A stretch of 20,091 bases of DNA from a virus (lineage: Duplodnaviria; Heunggongvirae; Uroviricota; Caudoviricetes). The notes beneath the pieces were generated by a model. It ran no database searches. It saw only the letters and a list, made by a program, of their open reading frames with translations, and was not told the DNA's origin. The translations under genes were made by a program, and so were the position numbers. This document shows, one piece after another, positions 7,424 through 20,091 of the stretch. The DNA lies in IMG/VR virus record IMGVR_UViG_2693429524_000017, positions 1 to 20,091 of that record; one strand, written 5' to 3'. The first letter of the stretch is position 1. The number at the start of each line of letters is the position of its first letter.

Positions 7424-8842
7424 ATGCCGATTCAGCAACTTCCGCTTATGAAAGGTGTCGGCAAAGACTTTCGAAACGCCGACTATATCGACTATCTGCC
7501 AGTGAATATGTTGGCTACACCCAAAGAAATCCTGAACAGCAGCGGATATCTTCGCTCATTCCCGGGCATTGCCAAACGTTCTGATGTGAACGGAGTATCG
7601 CGAGGCGTCGAGTACAACATGGCGCAGAATGCTGTTTATCGCGTGTGTGGTGGCAAGCTGTACAAAGGAGAAAGTGAAGTCGGTGACGTCGCCGGAAGTG
7701 GTCGTGTATCAATGGCGCATGGTCGGACATCACAGGCGGTAGGTGTTAATGGTCAACTGGTCGAGTATCGCTATGATGGCACTGTTAAAACCGTCTCAAA
7801 CTGGCCTACAGACAGCGGTTTTACGCAGTATGAGTTAGGTTCAGTTCGCGACATTACGCGCTTACGTGGGCGTTATGCGTGGTCAAAAGACGGTACTGAT
7901 TCATGGTTTATCACTGACCTTGAAGACGAATCGCACCCTGACCGCTACAGCGCACAATATCGTGCAGAATCGCAGCCTGACGGCATCATCGGCATAGGTA
8001 CATGGCGAGACTTTATCGTCTGCTTTGGTTCATCGACAATTGAATATTTCTCCCTGACTGGTGCAACCACCGTTGGTGCCGCTTTGTATGTCGCACAGCC
8101 ATCGCTGATGGTGCAGAAAGGTATTGCCGGGACTTACTGCAAAACGCCATTCGCTGATTCTTATGCGTTCATCAGCAATCCGGCAACAGGTGCGCCGTCT
8201 GTATACATCATCGGCTCCGGTCAGGTATCACCAATCGCCAGCGCGAGCATTGAGAAAATCCTCCGCTCCTACACTGCTGATGAACTGGCTGATGGTGTGA
8301 TGGAATCGCTGCGGTTTGATGCTCATGAGTTGCTGATTATCCACCTTCCTCGCCATGCTCTCGTGTACGACGCATCTTCAAGCGCAAATGGTCCGCAATG
8401 GTGTGTGCTGAAAACAGGCCTGTATGACGATGTGTACCGCGCTATCGACTTCATTTACGAAGGCAATCAGATAACGTGCGGCGATAAGCTGGAATCCGTG
8501 ACCGGGAAACTGCAGTTCGATATCAGCAGCCAGTATGGTCTTCAACAGGAACACCTGCTGTTTACTCCACTCTTCAAAGCAGATAACGCCAGATGCTTTG
8601 ATCTGGAGGTGGAATCATCGACGGGTGTTGCGCAGTACGCCGACCGCCTTTTTCTCTCTGCAACCACTGACGGCATCAATTACGGTCGTGAGCAGATGAT
8701 TGAGCAGAATGAACCGTTCGTTTACGACAAACGCGTTTTGTGGAAGAAAGTAGGGCGCATCAGGAAAAACATTGGTTTCAAATTGCGCGTTATCACGAAG
8801 TCACCTGTCACTCTGTCAGGCTGCCAGATAAGGATTGAGTAA
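7424..8842 (+). CDS. Head completion / tail hub protein (P22 gp10-like), 472 aa
   Basis: Same length as P22 gp10 as I recall it; GAGGTGA RBS; stop overlaps the next ATG (TAATG). Confidence 0.85.
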
Positions 8843-9690
8843 TGGCTGATTCGAATCTCAATACACCTGTTATTGTTCAGGCTACACGGCTCGACACATC
8901 AGTCCTTCCACGCAATATCTTCTCGCAGTCGTATCTGCTTTACGTTATCGCACAGGGCACTGATGTTGGTAACGTGGCTAACAAGGCCAACGAGGCCGGA
9001 CAGGGCGCTTATGATGCACAGGTTAGGAACGATGAGCAGGATGTGATTCTCGCTGACCATGAGCAGCGAATTTCTGCTGCGGAAGCAACGCTTGTTAATC
9101 ATGAGGAGCGAATCAGCCAGGCAGAATCAACTCTTCAGGAACATGAAACACGAATAGCTCAGAATGAAAGCGATATTGCGTCGCTTGATACCAGAGTTCA
9201 GTCGCTCGAATCGCAGGTTTCAGACCATGAAACGCGCATCGATGCTCTGGAGTATGCCACTACTCGCAAGAAGTCAGAGGTTGTTTACTCTGGCGTATCT
9301 GTAACCATCCCGACAGCGCCGACCAACCTTGTTAGCCTGCTGAAAACGCTCACGCCGTCATCCGGCACGTTGGCACCATTCTTCGACACCGTTAACAACA
9401 AGATGGTTGTGTTCAACGAGAACAAAACCTTGTTCTTCAAGCTGTCGATCGTCGGGACGTGGCCCAGCGGAACCGCCAACAGGTCAATGCAGCTAACCTT
9501 TTCCGGCTCTGTTCCTGACACACTGGTAAGCAGTCGCAACTCGGCGACAACAACCGACAACATCCTGTTAGCTACGTTCTTCAGCGTGGATAAAGACGGC
9601 TTTCTTGCCACAAATGGCAGTACGTTAACCATTCAGTCGAATGGTGCGGCGTTTACTGCCACAACCATCAAGATAATCGCGGAGCAGTGA
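8842..9690 (+). CDS. Tail needle (P22 gp26-like) with a C-terminal knob domain, 282 aa
   Basis: N-terminus matches the gp26 type. The centre has heptad-type repeats (HEQRIS, HEERIS, HETRIA, HETRID) typical of the trimeric coiled coil. The C-terminal ~140 aa is a Ser/Thr/Asn-rich extension, as in Sf6/HK620-type knobbed needles, which P22 lacks. Confidence 0.85.
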
Positions 9691-14857: not shown

Positions 14858-14918
14858 ATTAAATGACATTTGACATAGTTGGATACTTAGCTGCGGCTAT
14901 CAAGATGGAGGTATGTTT

Positions 14919-15362
14919 ATGCTCACTTGTTTTGATGTCGCCGACTACTTCTTGGCGCATTGCGATGAAGAAAGTGGCGACATTATCTCTAACCTAAAAA
15001 TTCAGAAGTTGACGTATTATGCCCAAGGGTTTTCTCTGGTTCTTCTGGGTAAGCCGCTATTTAATGAGAAAATTGAAGCCTGGATGCATGGGCCAGTAGT
15101 TCCTGAATTGTATCGTAAATATAGGGACTGTGGTAACGGCGCTTTACCTGCGCCAGAAAACTTTGACGCTAAAAAATTCAGTGAAGATGAAATTGAATTG
15201 CTGGATGAGGTGTATAAAGTTTATGGTCAGTTTTCTGCCTGGAAACTGCGCAATATGACTCACGAAGAGCAGCCATGGAAAGATGCTTACATTGAGGGTG
15301 CGGTTAGCCAAGAAATCACGCTTGATTCTATGAAAGGTTTTTTCAAAACGTTAATTAACTGA
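14919..15362 (+). CDS. Panacea (DUF4065, COG3600 GepA/SocA-like) domain protein; putative antitoxin or immunity component, about 147 aa
   Basis: Translation contains NLKIQKLTYYAQGFSLVLLGKPLFNEKIEAWMHGPVVPELYRKY, which I recognise as the Panacea core pattern. GGAGG at 14907-14911 favours the ATG at 14919 over the track start at 14913. Stop is 5 nt before the next ORF. Confidence 0.6.
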   Translation: MLTCFDVADYFLAHCDEESGDIISNLKIQKLTYYAQGFSLVLLGKPLFNEKIEAWMHGPVVPELYRKYRDCGNGALPAPENFDAKKFSEDEIELLDEVYKVYGQFSAWKLRNMTHEEQPWKDAYIEGAVSQEITLDSMKGFFKTLIN

Positions 15363-15367
15363 CGTGT

Positions 15368-15790
15368 ATGTCTAGAGTTAAGGGAAGAATAAAACAGAGG
15401 GATAAAGAGAGCTCTGCTACTGTTGGCCTCTCTATCCATCACGAATCTCATGATGTAGACAAAAGTCCGCCTGTATTTTCTCTTAGATACCTACAAAAGG
15501 GGTATTGCCTAGATTGCTGCCAAAAGCATGAAAAGGCAGCATTTGCAGATAGGCTGTTCAGGTTAAGTCAGATGTCATGGGATGAGATACGAAAATCTGA
15601 TAAACACGGGCTTGGGACGGAAAAAATTGCCAGAAACGCGATAAAGGCTCCGATTCCTAAGCATGTTACTCAAGATGTGGATTTCATTGCGTTCAGATTT
15701 TGCTCTAAGGCACCTATGGTTGGTTATAAGATAGGAGCCACTTTTTATGTCTTATGGCTCGACAGGGAGTTCAAGCTATACAAGCACTAA
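15368..15790 (+). CDS. Hypothetical basic protein, 140 aa; candidate toxin/effector partner of the upstream Panacea-domain protein
   Basis: ATG 5 nt after the upstream stop with no independent Shine-Dalgarno, so probably translationally coupled. K/R/H-rich, with a C-terminal segment VDFIAFRFCSKAPMVGYKIGATFYVLWLDREFKLYKH. I cannot assign a family. Followed directly by an intrinsic terminator. Confidence 0.55.
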   Translation: MSRVKGRIKQRDKESSATVGLSIHHESHDVDKSPPVFSLRYLQKGYCLDCCQKHEKAAFADRLFRLSQMSWDEIRKSDKHGLGTEKIARNAIKAPIPKHVTQDVDFIAFRFCSKAPMVGYKIGATFYVLWLDREFKLYKH

Positions 15791-17242: not shown

Positions 17243-17340
17243 AGCCCCAACTGCTGGAACAGTCAGGGCTTCGGTATCGTAAAACCACACATAGGAATTA
17301 ACGACATGAAAAGTATAGCAACAGCAGTATCTACTATCAA
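17236..17340 (-). ncRNA. sar: Candidate sar-like antisense RNA locus: minus-strand promoter inside the ant 5' end, transcript running antisense across the ant RBS to a hairpin at 17241-17272
   Basis: Minus-strand -35 TTGATA (reverse complement of 17335-17340), 17-bp spacer, -10 TATACT (reverse complement of 17312-17317), placing the start near the ant ATG. An extended hairpin GAAGCCC..ACTG-CTGGAA-CAGT..GGGCTTC lies at 17241-17272. The predicted length of about 65-70 nt is similar to the P22 sar RNA as I recall it. The span includes the promoter. Confidence 0.45.
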
Positions 17341-18172
17341 TGTACCATTCCACGGCGCAGAGCTTTATGTTGTCAATCACAACGGCGAACCGTATACCCC
17401 AATGAAACCTATCGTTGAAGGCATGGGTATGGATTGGGCTTCACAGTTTACGAAAATGAAGCAGCGGTTTAAAACCTCCATTGTGAAAATCACAATGCAG
17501 CTTCCTGGTGATGAACAACGCCGTGAGATTATTTGTTTGGCACTTCGCAAACTTGCAGGTTGGCTGCAAACCATTAGCCCTAACAAAGTCCGCCCTGAAA
17601 TCCGCGACAAGGTAATCCAGTATCAGGAAGAGTGTGACGATGTGCTCTACGAATACTGGACTAAAGGTCATGTAGTTAACCCACGCAAAGCTAAAAAGGC
17701 GTTGCCGGGTAAAATTACCACTGAACAGCAGGAAGCCATTAAACAACTCGTCATGAGTCGCGGTCAGTCTCTGCCAAAAGAAAAACAGGCGAAGGCGATG
17801 ATCACCATGTGGTCGTCACTGAAATCTCATTTTGGGTGTTCATACAAAGAAATCAGCGATGAGCAGTTTACCGAAGCTCTGTCACTTGCAGCTCGTATTC
17901 CACTTGAAGGCGAGTTCATTGGCAAGTCGAAACATAATGAGATGAGTTGTTTTGATTGGAGGATGAATGTTCATAACCTGAACTCGGCGTGCATTCATCT
18001 TGATGCCATGTACAGAATATGGAGAGACGAAATGGAACCCGCTTTGCGATTGCTTGGCTCTCCGGTTGCGACCAGATTTTGCGGAAGAATTGCAGATTGC
18101 TATTCCGTAACTGCAAGCGTTAAGAAAAGTCTGGAGAATGCCGCAGGGCTGAAAGGCTTACAACCATTTTAA
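17306..18172 (+). CDS. ant: Antirepressor Ant (P22 Ant-like), 288 aa
   Basis: N-terminal segment YTPMKPIVEGMGMDWASQFTKMKQRF...ICLALRKLAGWL...YQEECDDVLYEYWTKG is typical of phage antirepressor N-domains; located after arc as in P22 immI. Confidence 0.8.
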   Translation: MKSIATAVSTINVPFHGAELYVVNHNGEPYTPMKPIVEGMGMDWASQFTKMKQRFKTSIVKITMQLPGDEQRREIICLALRKLAGWLQTISPNKVRPEIRDKVIQYQEECDDVLYEYWTKGHVVNPRKAKKALPGKITTEQQEAIKQLVMSRGQSLPKEKQAKAMITMWSSLKSHFGCSYKEISDEQFTEALSLAARIPLEGEFIGKSKHNEMSCFDWRMNVHNLNSACIHLDAMYRIWRDEMEPALRLLGSPVATRFCGRIADCYSVTASVKKSLENAAGLKGLQPF

Positions 18173-18212
18173 CTACCTGCACGAAAAGTGCAGGTCAATC
18201 ATCAACGCAACG

Positions 18213-18236
18213 ACCCAGCTTCGGCTGGGTTTTTTT
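18213..18236 (+). terminator. Rho-independent terminator after ant
   Basis: ACCCAGC-TTCG-GCTGGGT hairpin followed by a T-run (18231-18236). Confidence 0.75.
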
Positions 18237-18294: not shown

Positions 18295-20091
18295 ATGACA
18301 GACATTACAGCCAATGTTGTAGTGAGCATGCCTTCGCAACTCTTCACTATGGCGCGTTCTTTTAAAGCGGTTGCCAATGGCAAAATTTATATTGGTAAAA
18401 TTGACACTGACCCTGTAAATCCTGAAAACCAGATTCAGGTTTATGTGGAGAACGAAGATGGTTCTCACGTCCCTGTTTCGCAACCAATCACCATTAACGC
18501 TGCTGGTTATCCGGTATATAACGGACAGATTGCCAAGTTCGTAACTGTACAGAATCACTCCATGGCTGTTTATGATGCATATGGTGCACAACAATTCTAT
18601 TATCCTGATCTACTTAAATATTCTCCAGACCAGTTAAGGGCTGAGCTTTCTGGCCCTGATGGCGCATCTCTGGTTGGTTATGGAGGCACAACCGTAAAGA
18701 TTGAGCTGGAGATCTTGAAAGCTACACATGATTCATTAATTGATAAAACAGGATTTAACGCTATTGGCCGCTTTCTCAATCTTTCAGAGCTTCGCTCCTG
18801 TGTTCCAGAGGAGGCAGGGCAGATTGTATACGTAGCATCAGCAGCTAGCACTACACATGCTGAAAACCACCTTGGTGGCGGCTTTTTCGAGTCTGTTGAT
18901 AACATTCAGGCGTGGGCTGATGATGGTGGAATTGTAATCAAGCCAGAAACTGGAACGATGGTATGGAGACGAATTAATTTTACCACTTACGACATGCAAT
19001 TTTGGGGGGTGAAACCTGACGGAGTCACAGATAACGCAACAGCTATAACTCTTGCAACTAACTTTGCCCGCTCAAACAAATGCATTCTAGAGGCTCCTGC
19101 TGGAAACATAAATACATCAAAAACAATCCCAATTTATGACAATATGGGAATTAGAGGACAGGGAAAGGCTGAAGCGACAGTTTTTTATAAAACAACAAAT
19201 GACAAAATAGATCTCACAAAAAATGGAGAAGTAATTCTTCAGGTGGATGCATTATGTGCTTTTATACCAAAACAATGGGATCTAACAGATAACTCAATGA
19301 GTTCATTTTGTGTTAACGGTAGAGTTGAAAACTGCATGTTTAGAAGGCTTGGCTTAACACAAGAAAATGTAGATTCTTATAGAAATTATTACGGACTGTT
19401 TTTAGGAAAATCAGCAGCACCAGTTATCAGACAGTCAATTTTTGAATGTGCTTATATCGGATGCTTCTCTTATGCGCCGTTCTCTGGCGTAATGGAAATG
19501 GTCGGTTTCCCACAATATCCAGGGAAAGGATATGCTGGAGTTTTATTTGAAGATTTTAGGGATGGTCAAATAAAAGTAATAGGCACTTCTATGGATATGC
19601 GCCTTGTTCAGGTTAACGGTTACCAGTTGTCATTTAGAATGTCAGGAATGCAATATACCACCATGACCAATTGTACTGCTGAAAACTGCACGCCAATGGA
19701 TGGGGAGTCAATTTGCTATGCATTTGATTTTGTAAATCCGTATTGCATTGTCATGAATACTTGTGCAACAGAATTTGTTAAGGGTGGGCAACTTCGTGTT
19801 AGCGTTCAGGGAAACCCATCATTCAGACCATCTATTATTGTCAATGGCTTTCTGCCAATTGATCAACAAAGCCCGGTAGTGCAAACACCTATAATAGATA
19901 TTGATAATGGTGGCGTAGTTGAAATGAGTGTCATATTAAATGGTGGAGATTGGGCTATAAATCCATCTGCTACAAATTTAGCCGTACCAAGAGCAAGCGG
20001 AAATGGGTTGAAAGCAAGGTTAATAGGTGTAAACGGGTCGCCTGTTTCGATCTGGAGCGTGTCTCCTGGCGCAGATGTGAAGGAGTTCTAA
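18295..20091 (+). CDS. Tailspike protein (P22 gp9-family N-terminal head-binding domain fused to a divergent receptor-binding domain), 598 aa
   Basis: N-terminus [50 protein letters not shown] matches the conserved P22/Sf6/HK620 particle-binding domain. The remainder is a different, AT-richer domain. GGAG RBS; the TAA is the last codon of the window. Confidence 0.85.

Follow-up and report, generated by a model that had tools for sequence, protein, structure and literature searches.

Genomic context of the tailspike gene

The window, i.e. the whole stretch of 20,091 nt that was analysed, covers the late arm, with the morphogenetic genes, of a prophage of the P22-like type (Lederbergvirus) and contains a complete tailspike gene at its right end (Table 1). 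The terminase, portal, coat and ejection genes are 95-97% identical to those of the phages JEP4, E212, EC.P3 and CUS-3, and in these four phages the match does not go beyond nt ~310-345 of the spike gene. The tail needle possesses an Sf6-type knob, and two Arc-family genes as well as a P22-type antirepressor gene (P22_AR_N) are located upstream of the spike gene. The latter thus closes a P22-type morphogenetic module, past the ejection proteins and the immI region. This is the place of a P22-type tailspike gene; in P22, Sf6, HK620 and CUS-3 it likewise follows immI, at the right-hand end of the late operon. A GGAG motif is found 7-10 nt 5' of the ATG. Between the antirepressor gene (17306-18172) and the start of the spike gene there is a GC-rich hairpin with an 8-bp stem including 5 GC pairs, followed by TTTTTAT.

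The last 7.8 kb of the window match contig CYFD01000002.1 of assembly GCA_001284405.1 base for base. In this contig, a gene for a 369-aa protein of the Acyl_transf_3 family follows 3' of the spike gene and is itself followed by torT-torR-torC; the same order of spike, acyltransferase and tor genes is present in strain Z1323CEC0019. The element is a P22-like (Lederbergvirus) prophage of E. coli that is inserted beside torT. Both GCA_001284405.1 and Logan run ERR178206 contain the identical 598-aa protein, and public assemblies label it merely as a "phage head-binding domain-containing protein".

Table 1. Features of the tailspike locus (positions refer to the window; nt and aa in the feature column refer to the spike gene and its product)
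Feature	Position	Strand	Characteristics
Terminator-like GC-rich hairpin, then T-run	18212..18231	+	consensus match only
Complete tailspike gene	18295..20091	+	598 aa, single ORF; the stop codon is the final codon of the window
Segment A: P22-type head-binding (particle-anchor) domain, aa 1-113	18295..18633	+	PF09008; N-domains in PDB; nucleotide identity to Lederbergvirus spikes
Segment B: linker and neck helix, aa ~114-161	18634..18777	+	as in the S56-type spike, unlike TL-2011b (~50-63%)
Segment C: 246-nt tract, nt 484-729, aa 162-243	18778..19023	+	hardly any differences between this gene, TL-2011b gp48 and S56
Segment D: start and core of the predicted beta-helix, nt 730-1317, aa 244-439	19024..19611	+	AT-rich (GC 0.37, GC3 0.25)
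Segment E: distal beta-helix and C-terminal part, nt 1318-1797, aa 440-598	19612..20091	+	TL-2011b identity ~82%

The head-binding domain

The N-terminal 113 residues match the full profile of Pfam PF09008 Head_binding (E 5.8e-65, 217 bits vs a cut-off of 24). When all chains in the PDB were searched with phmmer, Sf6 gp14 (7sg7) was matched by aa 1-118 with E 4e-62 and the P22 tailspike by aa 1-117 with E ~1e-47. At the nucleotide level, megablast revealed 82-92% identity of nt 1 to ~307-347 to the spike genes of HK620, Sf6, CUS-3 and epsilon34, among others, whereupon the matches end. The earlier note had described the first ~115 residues as near-identical to the particle-binding domain of Sf6, HK620 and P22. 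This holds for Sf6 (86-87% aa identity of the N-domain according to Foldseek) and for HK620 (88% nt identity in this region), but less so for P22, where the identity amounts to 68-70%. Since the AlphaFold2 model, which is a monomer, is poor in the N-domain (pLDDT <50, most rows of the alignment carrying other anchors), the assignment of the anchor rests on its sequence homology to solved N-domains. By analogy with P22 and Sf6, the anchor is presumed to attach the spike, which would form a trimer, to the tail hub of gp4, gp10 and gp26.

The head-binding domain is thus homologous to that of P22 gp9, Sf6 gp14, HK620 gp9 and the CUS-3 spike, and the general fold class of the predicted beta-helix is shared with them as well. 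In contrast, their catalytic domains (endorhamnosidase, endo-N-acetylglucosaminidase and endosialidase) have no significant similarity to aa 119-598, and their receptors differ. It had been claimed before that the remainder of the protein is unrelated to the P22 endorhamnosidase domain, and indeed no significant alignment to P22 or Sf6 extends past aa 118.

Mosaic structure and base composition of the gene

We compared the spike gene with 50,697 phage records by megablast and mapped the nucleotide mismatches against the spike genes of TL-2011b and S56. Within these records, nt 446-1797 match only TL-2011b gp48 (94.8%), which is annotated as a "hypothetical protein" (YP_007001999.1) and originates from a Uetakevirus of E. 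coli O103:H25. TL-2011b gp48 comprises 697 aa and has a ~205-aa anchor of the epsilon15/phiV10 type instead of the P22 head-binding domain. The second reference, the S56 / APEC20/16-type spike of Lederbergvirus prophages (WP_074014729.1, 597 aa), has the same architecture as the spike described here and is 93-99.5% identical to it over nt 1-729.

The two comparisons change abruptly, but at different positions. Mismatches to TL-2011b are dense up to nt 445, become sparser by nt 483 and number just 8 in nt 484-1317 (99%); the neck (aa 114-160) is only ~50-60% identical. Past nt ~1317, the identity drops to ~82% in the 3' third of the gene and to 77% at its very end. The S56 spike shows only 2 mismatches in nt 322-729 (99.5%) and none at all in nt 322-483, the region in which AlphaFold2 predicts helices at aa 111-118, 123-126 and 134-149. 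From nt 730 on, the mismatches to S56 are dense, with identities of ~50-70% at the nucleotide and 58% at the amino acid level, whereas segment D is 99% identical to TL-2011b. Segment C differs from TL-2011b at nt 513 only and from S56 at nt 513 and 618 only.

The gene is therefore a mosaic with at least four junctions, most probably assembled by homologous recombination. The first junction (nt ~310-347) corresponds to the classical head-binding boundary and falls on what the CUS-3 record annotates as a "boundary sequence". The second one (nt ~446-484) is the left edge of the TL-2011b-like tract, the S56-like tract ends at the third one (nt 729/730), and at the fourth one (nt ~1317) the identity to TL-2011b declines from 99% to ~82%. 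Since nt 484-729 are essentially identical in three lineages, they present themselves as an obvious site for homologous crossover, and judging from the alignments this 246-nt tract is a likely substrate for it.

These results bear on two claims of the earlier note. The proposed horizontal exchange of the host-specificity module is borne out, and its sources can now be named as a Lederbergvirus anchor and a TL-2011b-type receptor-binding domain (RBD). The proposed anatomy of the fusion stands as far as the mosaic itself is concerned, but there are at least four junctions and not one, and the AT-rich part begins at aa ~244 and not at aa ~115. A full-length co-linear match to a single known tailspike of uniform GC content would speak against such an exchange. 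Co-linear full-length matches were found in six E. coli chromosomes (96.9-98.7%), next to the identical protein in GCA_001284405.1. None of these copies of the mosaic has been characterised, however, and they are uneven in composition, so that they do not constitute a match of that kind.

The unevenness of the composition is obvious from the windowed GC content. It amounts to 0.41-0.47 in nt 1-729 of the gene, 0.371 in nt 730-1320 and 0.419 in nt 1321-1797. The morphogenetic genes of the window have a GC content of ~0.50, and its right arm is already at ~0.40-0.45 from ~14000 on. The onset of AT-richness had been placed at roughly 19000, which agrees well with the drop from ~0.47 to ~0.37 that we located at ~19024; positions 19101-19400 have the lowest GC content of any 300 nt in the entire 20 kb (0.327 vs a median of 0.49). 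This break lies ~380 nt past the boundary between head-binding domain and RBD (~18635-18650), at the first rungs of the predicted beta-helix, and coincides with the breakpoint at nt 729/730 and not with the head-binding boundary. The low GC content continues into the downstream acyltransferase gene (GC 0.297). We also considered AT-richness as a general property of the RBD family, which can be ruled out: in the S56 allele, the GC content of the corresponding segment amounts to 0.445, and AT-richness therefore belongs to the TL-2011b-type allele, TL-2011b gp48 itself being AT-rich, too.

One could argue that no recent recombination occurred at all and that the steps in identity as well as the GC dip only reflect uneven constraint and amino acid composition in a vertically inherited gene. 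Beta-helix bodies are often odd in composition, and aa 155-243 are the best conserved part of the RBD family at the protein level (conservation 0.71). However, the identity to TL-2011b rises from ~50-63% to 99-100% within ~40 nt, synonymous sites included, and that to S56 falls from 99.5% to ~60% at nt 730. Moreover, TL-2011b belongs to another genus and has a wholly different 205-aa anchor, and the S56 allele of the AT-rich segment does not share its composition. We therefore regard vertical inheritance as extremely improbable and retain the interpretation as a recombinant mosaic.

Fold of the receptor-binding domain

Neither our local copy of Pfam-A nor NCBIfam yielded a family for aa 119-598, apart from a weak match to PF12708 at aa 238-304, i.e. 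at the start of the predicted beta-helix. For the identical protein, a precomputed assignment to PF27114 Phage_tail_beta exists, a family absent from the local copy. Searching the PDB with the RBD by phmmer gave only weak matches (E ~1e-5) to Depo32/DpK2 and 24qi, which indicates that no close relative has been solved.

The AlphaFold2 model, built on 28 homologues, has a pLDDT >90 over aa ~240-598, including all of segment D, and shows successive short strands in the pattern of a parallel beta-helix. The best match among solved folds obtained with Foldseek is gp86 of the Acinetobacter phage Belisarius (24qi, E 2e-16, 20% identity). Further matches are tailspike depolymerases as well, namely AS12 gp42, Klebsiella Depo32/DpK2, K2-2 TSP and CBA120 TSP2, and a Foldseek probability of 1.00 was reached for 24qi, 6eu4, 7vz3, 6w4q and 8iq9. 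The C-terminal part of the protein is thus predicted to be a right-handed parallel beta-helix of the pectate-lyase-like tailspike-depolymerase type.

Receptor specificity

Over at least 95% of its length, the RBD is 96.6% identical to that of TL-2011b (aa 155-598), 53% to that of PAS7 (vB_EcoP_PAS7, Cepavirus) and 43% to that of Ro103C3lw (Kayfunavirus). These three are all the E. coli phages with this RBD in the phage collection, and every one of them has an O103 host. The RBD family occurs behind at least three kinds of anchors, which are the P22 head-binding domain, the Uetakevirus anchor and PF18668 Tail_spike_N. PAS7 and Ro103C3lw are lytic podoviruses whose spikes have a different anchor or lack a separate one, and, unlike for the prophage studied here, no linked acyltransferase has been reported for them; their spikes share the predicted beta-helix and the conserved acidic residues, and their O103 specificity is known from host range and RBD grafting. 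An R2 tailocin equipped with the PAS7 RBD kills O103 strains (PMC11762384), and the Ro103C3lw RBD in CBA120 confers entry into O103 cells (PMC12737597). An O103 RBP subtype has been defined by Pas et al. 2023 (PMC10408124; see also PMC11522302), and by the identity criterion of that study (PMC10408124) the present RBD belongs to it. The O103 assignment of TL-2011b in the same study was itself made by inference (group C, "HGT").

A published precedent for the combination of a P22-like anchor with an O103 RBD exists in the RBP of a Lederbergvirus prophage of E. coli RHB38-C21 (CP057085.1), which has been assigned to O103 (PMC10408124 Table S1) and whose anchor was delineated at aa 123. Strain RHB38-C21 is not among the O103 wzy-positive genomes described below, and the phage collection contains no cultured P22-like phage with this RBD.

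The association with O103 hosts was examined by searching the O103 wzy gene of strain 12009 in 5,426 complete E. coli genomes. It is present in 32 of them, while the RBD-specific part of the spike gene was found in 8 of the 5,426. The subtype further calls for a host of the corresponding serogroup (PMC10408124), and all four genomes with an intact full-length copy (96.9-98.7% identical) possess the O103 wzy gene, as do both carriers of a C-terminal fragment. For the intact copies alone, Fisher's exact test gave p = 1e-9, and for all carriers p = 7e-13, although relatedness of the strains inflates the significance of both. Two clonal-looking pairs (the GPEC pair and the pair 33-6/58-3) leave about four independent O103 lineages; the carriers differ in country of origin and in source (chicken, dog and others). 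The remaining two carriers are wzy-negative, but as counter-evidence they are uninformative, since IS3 interrupts their spike gene, which sits in a decayed, IS-ridden prophage remnant without morphogenetic genes. The S56-type allele with its 58% identical beta-helix is likewise confined to O103 wzy-positive genomes. Spikes of the 697-aa TL-2011b type, which we had also expected in complete O103 genomes, were not detected there at the sensitivity of megablast; they seem to be confined to draft assemblies.

The earlier note had suspected that the spike recognises a different O-antigen or a capsule. Its first alternative fits the data: the RBD is of the O103 subtype, and every complete genome with an intact copy is O103 wzy-positive. 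It is conceivable that the RBD targets another glycan, be it a capsule, colanic acid or some modification linked to O103, and that the association with O103 results from hitch-hiking of the prophage with the clones of a few O103 lineages. Among solved folds, the nearest are indeed capsule depolymerases of Acinetobacter and Klebsiella phages, and a further match, over aa 1-302, is to phrog_8280, described as a "tail spike protein with colanic acid degradation activity". That match, however, covers the anchor and the neck and leaves the beta-helix body outside. There are also just about four independent O103 lineages with intact or fragmentary copies, but the strains differ in source and country, the RBD family is present in three unrelated phage genera isolated on O103, and the grafts of two of its members result in O103 targeting (PMC11762384, PMC12737597). 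Another glycan is therefore a very unlikely target. Most likely, aa ~155-598, comprising the neck subdomain and the beta-helix, bind the O103 O-polysaccharide. Since a second, 58% identical beta-helix allele also occurs in O103 hosts, the label "O103" may hide a finer specificity, for instance for acetylated vs glucosylated forms.

Candidate active site

For PAS7, acidic residues of the active site have been proposed in silico (PMC11522302). In the alignment they correspond to D282, E293, E384, E463, N464, E493 and D523 of the present spike, of which the conserved D282, E293 and E384 are located in segment D and the conserved E463, E493 and D523, together with E471, in segment E. E463 and E493 do not vary in any of the 28 homologues, which reach down to 44% identity, and E293 and E384 are nearly invariant. 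The set of E293, E384, E463, E471 and E493 is invariant or conserved to at least 93%. These residues are candidates for catalysis by a putative hydrolase.

It has to be considered whether the spike binds the O103 antigen without being an endoglycosidase, either as a non-catalytic adhesin or as a deacetylase or lyase-type enzyme. The active site of PAS7 is only an in silico prediction, and its residue E348 is an asparagine both here and in TL-2011b. Furthermore, some tailspikes are esterases, an example being the petal domain of epsilon15 (bioRxiv 10.64898/2026.07.31.742079). Our searches of Pfam and NCBIfam, however, revealed no SGNH or esterase domain, PAS7 forms plaques with halos that are typical of depolymerase activity (PMC11522302), and the four acidic residues E293, E384, E463 and E493 are invariant or nearly so. 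A lyase would require a uronic acid in its substrate. The O103 unit, which we take to consist of Glc, Fuc3N-acyl, GlcNAc and GalNAc (the content of the latter three being partly supported by references), presumably contains no uronic acid, and a lyase mechanism is thus unlikely. Taken together, a spike of this non-endoglycosidase type appears unlikely to us.

Our preferred reading, to which we assign a probability of about 0.8, is that the gene encodes an O103-directed mosaic tailspike of a P22-like E. coli prophage, the beta-helix of which would cleave the O103 O-polysaccharide as an endoglycosidase. This cleavage would allow the virion to descend to the outer membrane.

Linked genes for probable O-antigen modification

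The acyltransferase gene that follows the spike gene in the source contig, just beyond the window, has its counterpart in the O-acetyltransferase-type gene downstream of TL-2011b gp48. The two are 84.5% identical at the nucleotide and 82% at the amino acid level, and the homology to TL-2011b runs on past the stop codon of the spike gene. The AT-rich beta-helix travels with the downstream gene for a putative O-antigen acyltransferase. By analogy with Oac of Sf6 and phiV10, the acyltransferase would modify the O antigen of the lysogen and block superinfection. The S56-type spike gene, in contrast, is followed by gtrC-gtrB-gtrA (glucosylation) and not by an acyltransferase gene.

One could speculate that the two O103 beta-helix alleles, the acyltransferase-linked and the gtrABC-linked one, form matched pairs of spike and O-antigen modification that are swapped via the 246-nt tract, each being tuned to a differently decorated O103 antigen in order to escape the superinfection block of the other. 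The conserved neck would then be the border of a recombination cassette in temperate phages, for which conserved RBP motifs have been reported to be absent. We put this forward as a tentative idea that is, on balance, rather doubtful.

Conclusions

Much of what is described here was known before: the O103 RBP subtype has been defined, the spike of a Lederbergvirus prophage has been assigned to O103, and the protein itself is present in public assemblies. New are the breakpoints at nucleotide resolution, the identical tract of 246 nt as a likely crossover site in temperate phages, the link between an acyltransferase and the AT-rich beta-helix, and the coexistence of two beta-helix alleles in O103 hosts. 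The spike represents a natural, predicted O103-directed receptor-binding module on the well-understood P22 scaffold, with possible uses in typing, detection and the engineering of tailocins or phages. For the latter, the breakpoints might serve as natural splice points for the construction of chimeric spikes, the main one being at aa 162-243, just ahead of the beta-helix. Biologically, this is an ordinary host-range module swap of a previously described kind. It confirms, but does not extend, the picture that the anchors of tailspikes follow the phage genus and their RBDs the serogroup of the host.

Spike alleles and remnants in other genomes

There is a second Lederbergvirus allele of the tailspike gene in the E. 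coli strains S56 and APEC20/16, both of whose genomes carry the O103 wzy marker. It is nearly identical to the window gene through nt 729, and thereafter the two proteins share 58% amino acid identity. Unlike the window gene, the second allele is not AT-rich past this point, and it is followed downstream by gtrC-gtrB-gtrA.

Other copies are broken. An IS3-family element splits the spike gene of WP8-S18-CRE-02 and GSH8M-2 at gene nt ~1365, and the surrounding prophage remnant also contains IS1 and ISSen4 and is devoid of morphogenetic genes. Among the complete E. coli genomes, these two are the sole RBD (receptor-binding domain) carriers without O103 wzy. The C-terminal spike fragment in the wzy-positive strains 33-6 and 58-3 is 93.5% identical to gene nt 1302-1793 at the nucleotide level. 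Its neighbours, near dsdC/torI, are gtr genes and an acyltransferase gene, and all that remains of this prophage is the serotype-conversion end.

According to phage records, the RBD family also occurs in two Aeromonas veronii phages (44% identity) and in one entry that bears the name Enterococcus faecium phage Efm 3-10 (32% identity). The latter is a surprising host label for a tailspike of Gram-negative type.

Features of the late arm upstream of the spike

The tail needle protein ends in a C-terminal knob of the type found in Sf6, whereas the needle tip of P22 is of a different type. A gene pair within an island of GC ~0.40 separates the last ejection-protein gene from the immI region. The first product is assigned to the SocA/Panacea antitoxin type by Pfam, its NCBIfam SocA match falling under the NCBIfam cut-off, and the gene of the 140-aa protein lies directly 3' of it. 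The pair may represent a Panacea-type toxin-antitoxin system or a defence moron.

The terminator-like hairpin lies 64 nt 5' of the spike ATG, so spike expression would depend, as it does in P22, on late-operon transcription that reads through or is antiterminated.

Coordinates of the features (L-numbers, loci outside the window)
Feature	Location	Strand	Basis or source
Tail needle protein, Sf6-type C-terminal knob	window 8842-9690	+	PF16532, E 1e-117
SocA/Panacea antitoxin-type protein, 149 aa	window 14913-15362	+	PF13274, E 2e-24
Function-unknown protein, 140 aa	window 15368-15790	+	phrog_8366; weak MAG6450-family match
Terminator-like hairpin with T-run, strong	window 18212-18231	+	consensus match
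Acyl_transf_3 gene, 369 aa	L007 7868-8977 (source contig, directly past window end)		window-identical contig
Acyltransferase gene, further loci	L004 5868-6977; L001 5423-6529		
Second spike allele	L002 3001-4794; L010 4001-5797		S56 and APEC20/16
IS-split spike gene	L009 5001-8133		WP8-S18-CRE-02; likewise GSH8M-2
C-terminal spike fragment, 147 aa	L003 3053-3496		33-6 and 58-3
RBD family, non-E. coli phages			PV296136.1, PV296137.1, OR844942.1

The acyltransferase gene downstream of the spike

In the source contig and in Z1323CEC0019, the spike is followed by the Acyl_transf_3 gene, which has a GC content of 0.297 and shares 84.5% nucleotide identity with the O-acetyltransferase gene 3' of the spike of the Uetakevirus TL-2011b. 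This gene is probably a serotype-converting gene. It recurs 3' of the spike in all three, and RBD and acyltransferase thus move together as a single cassette.
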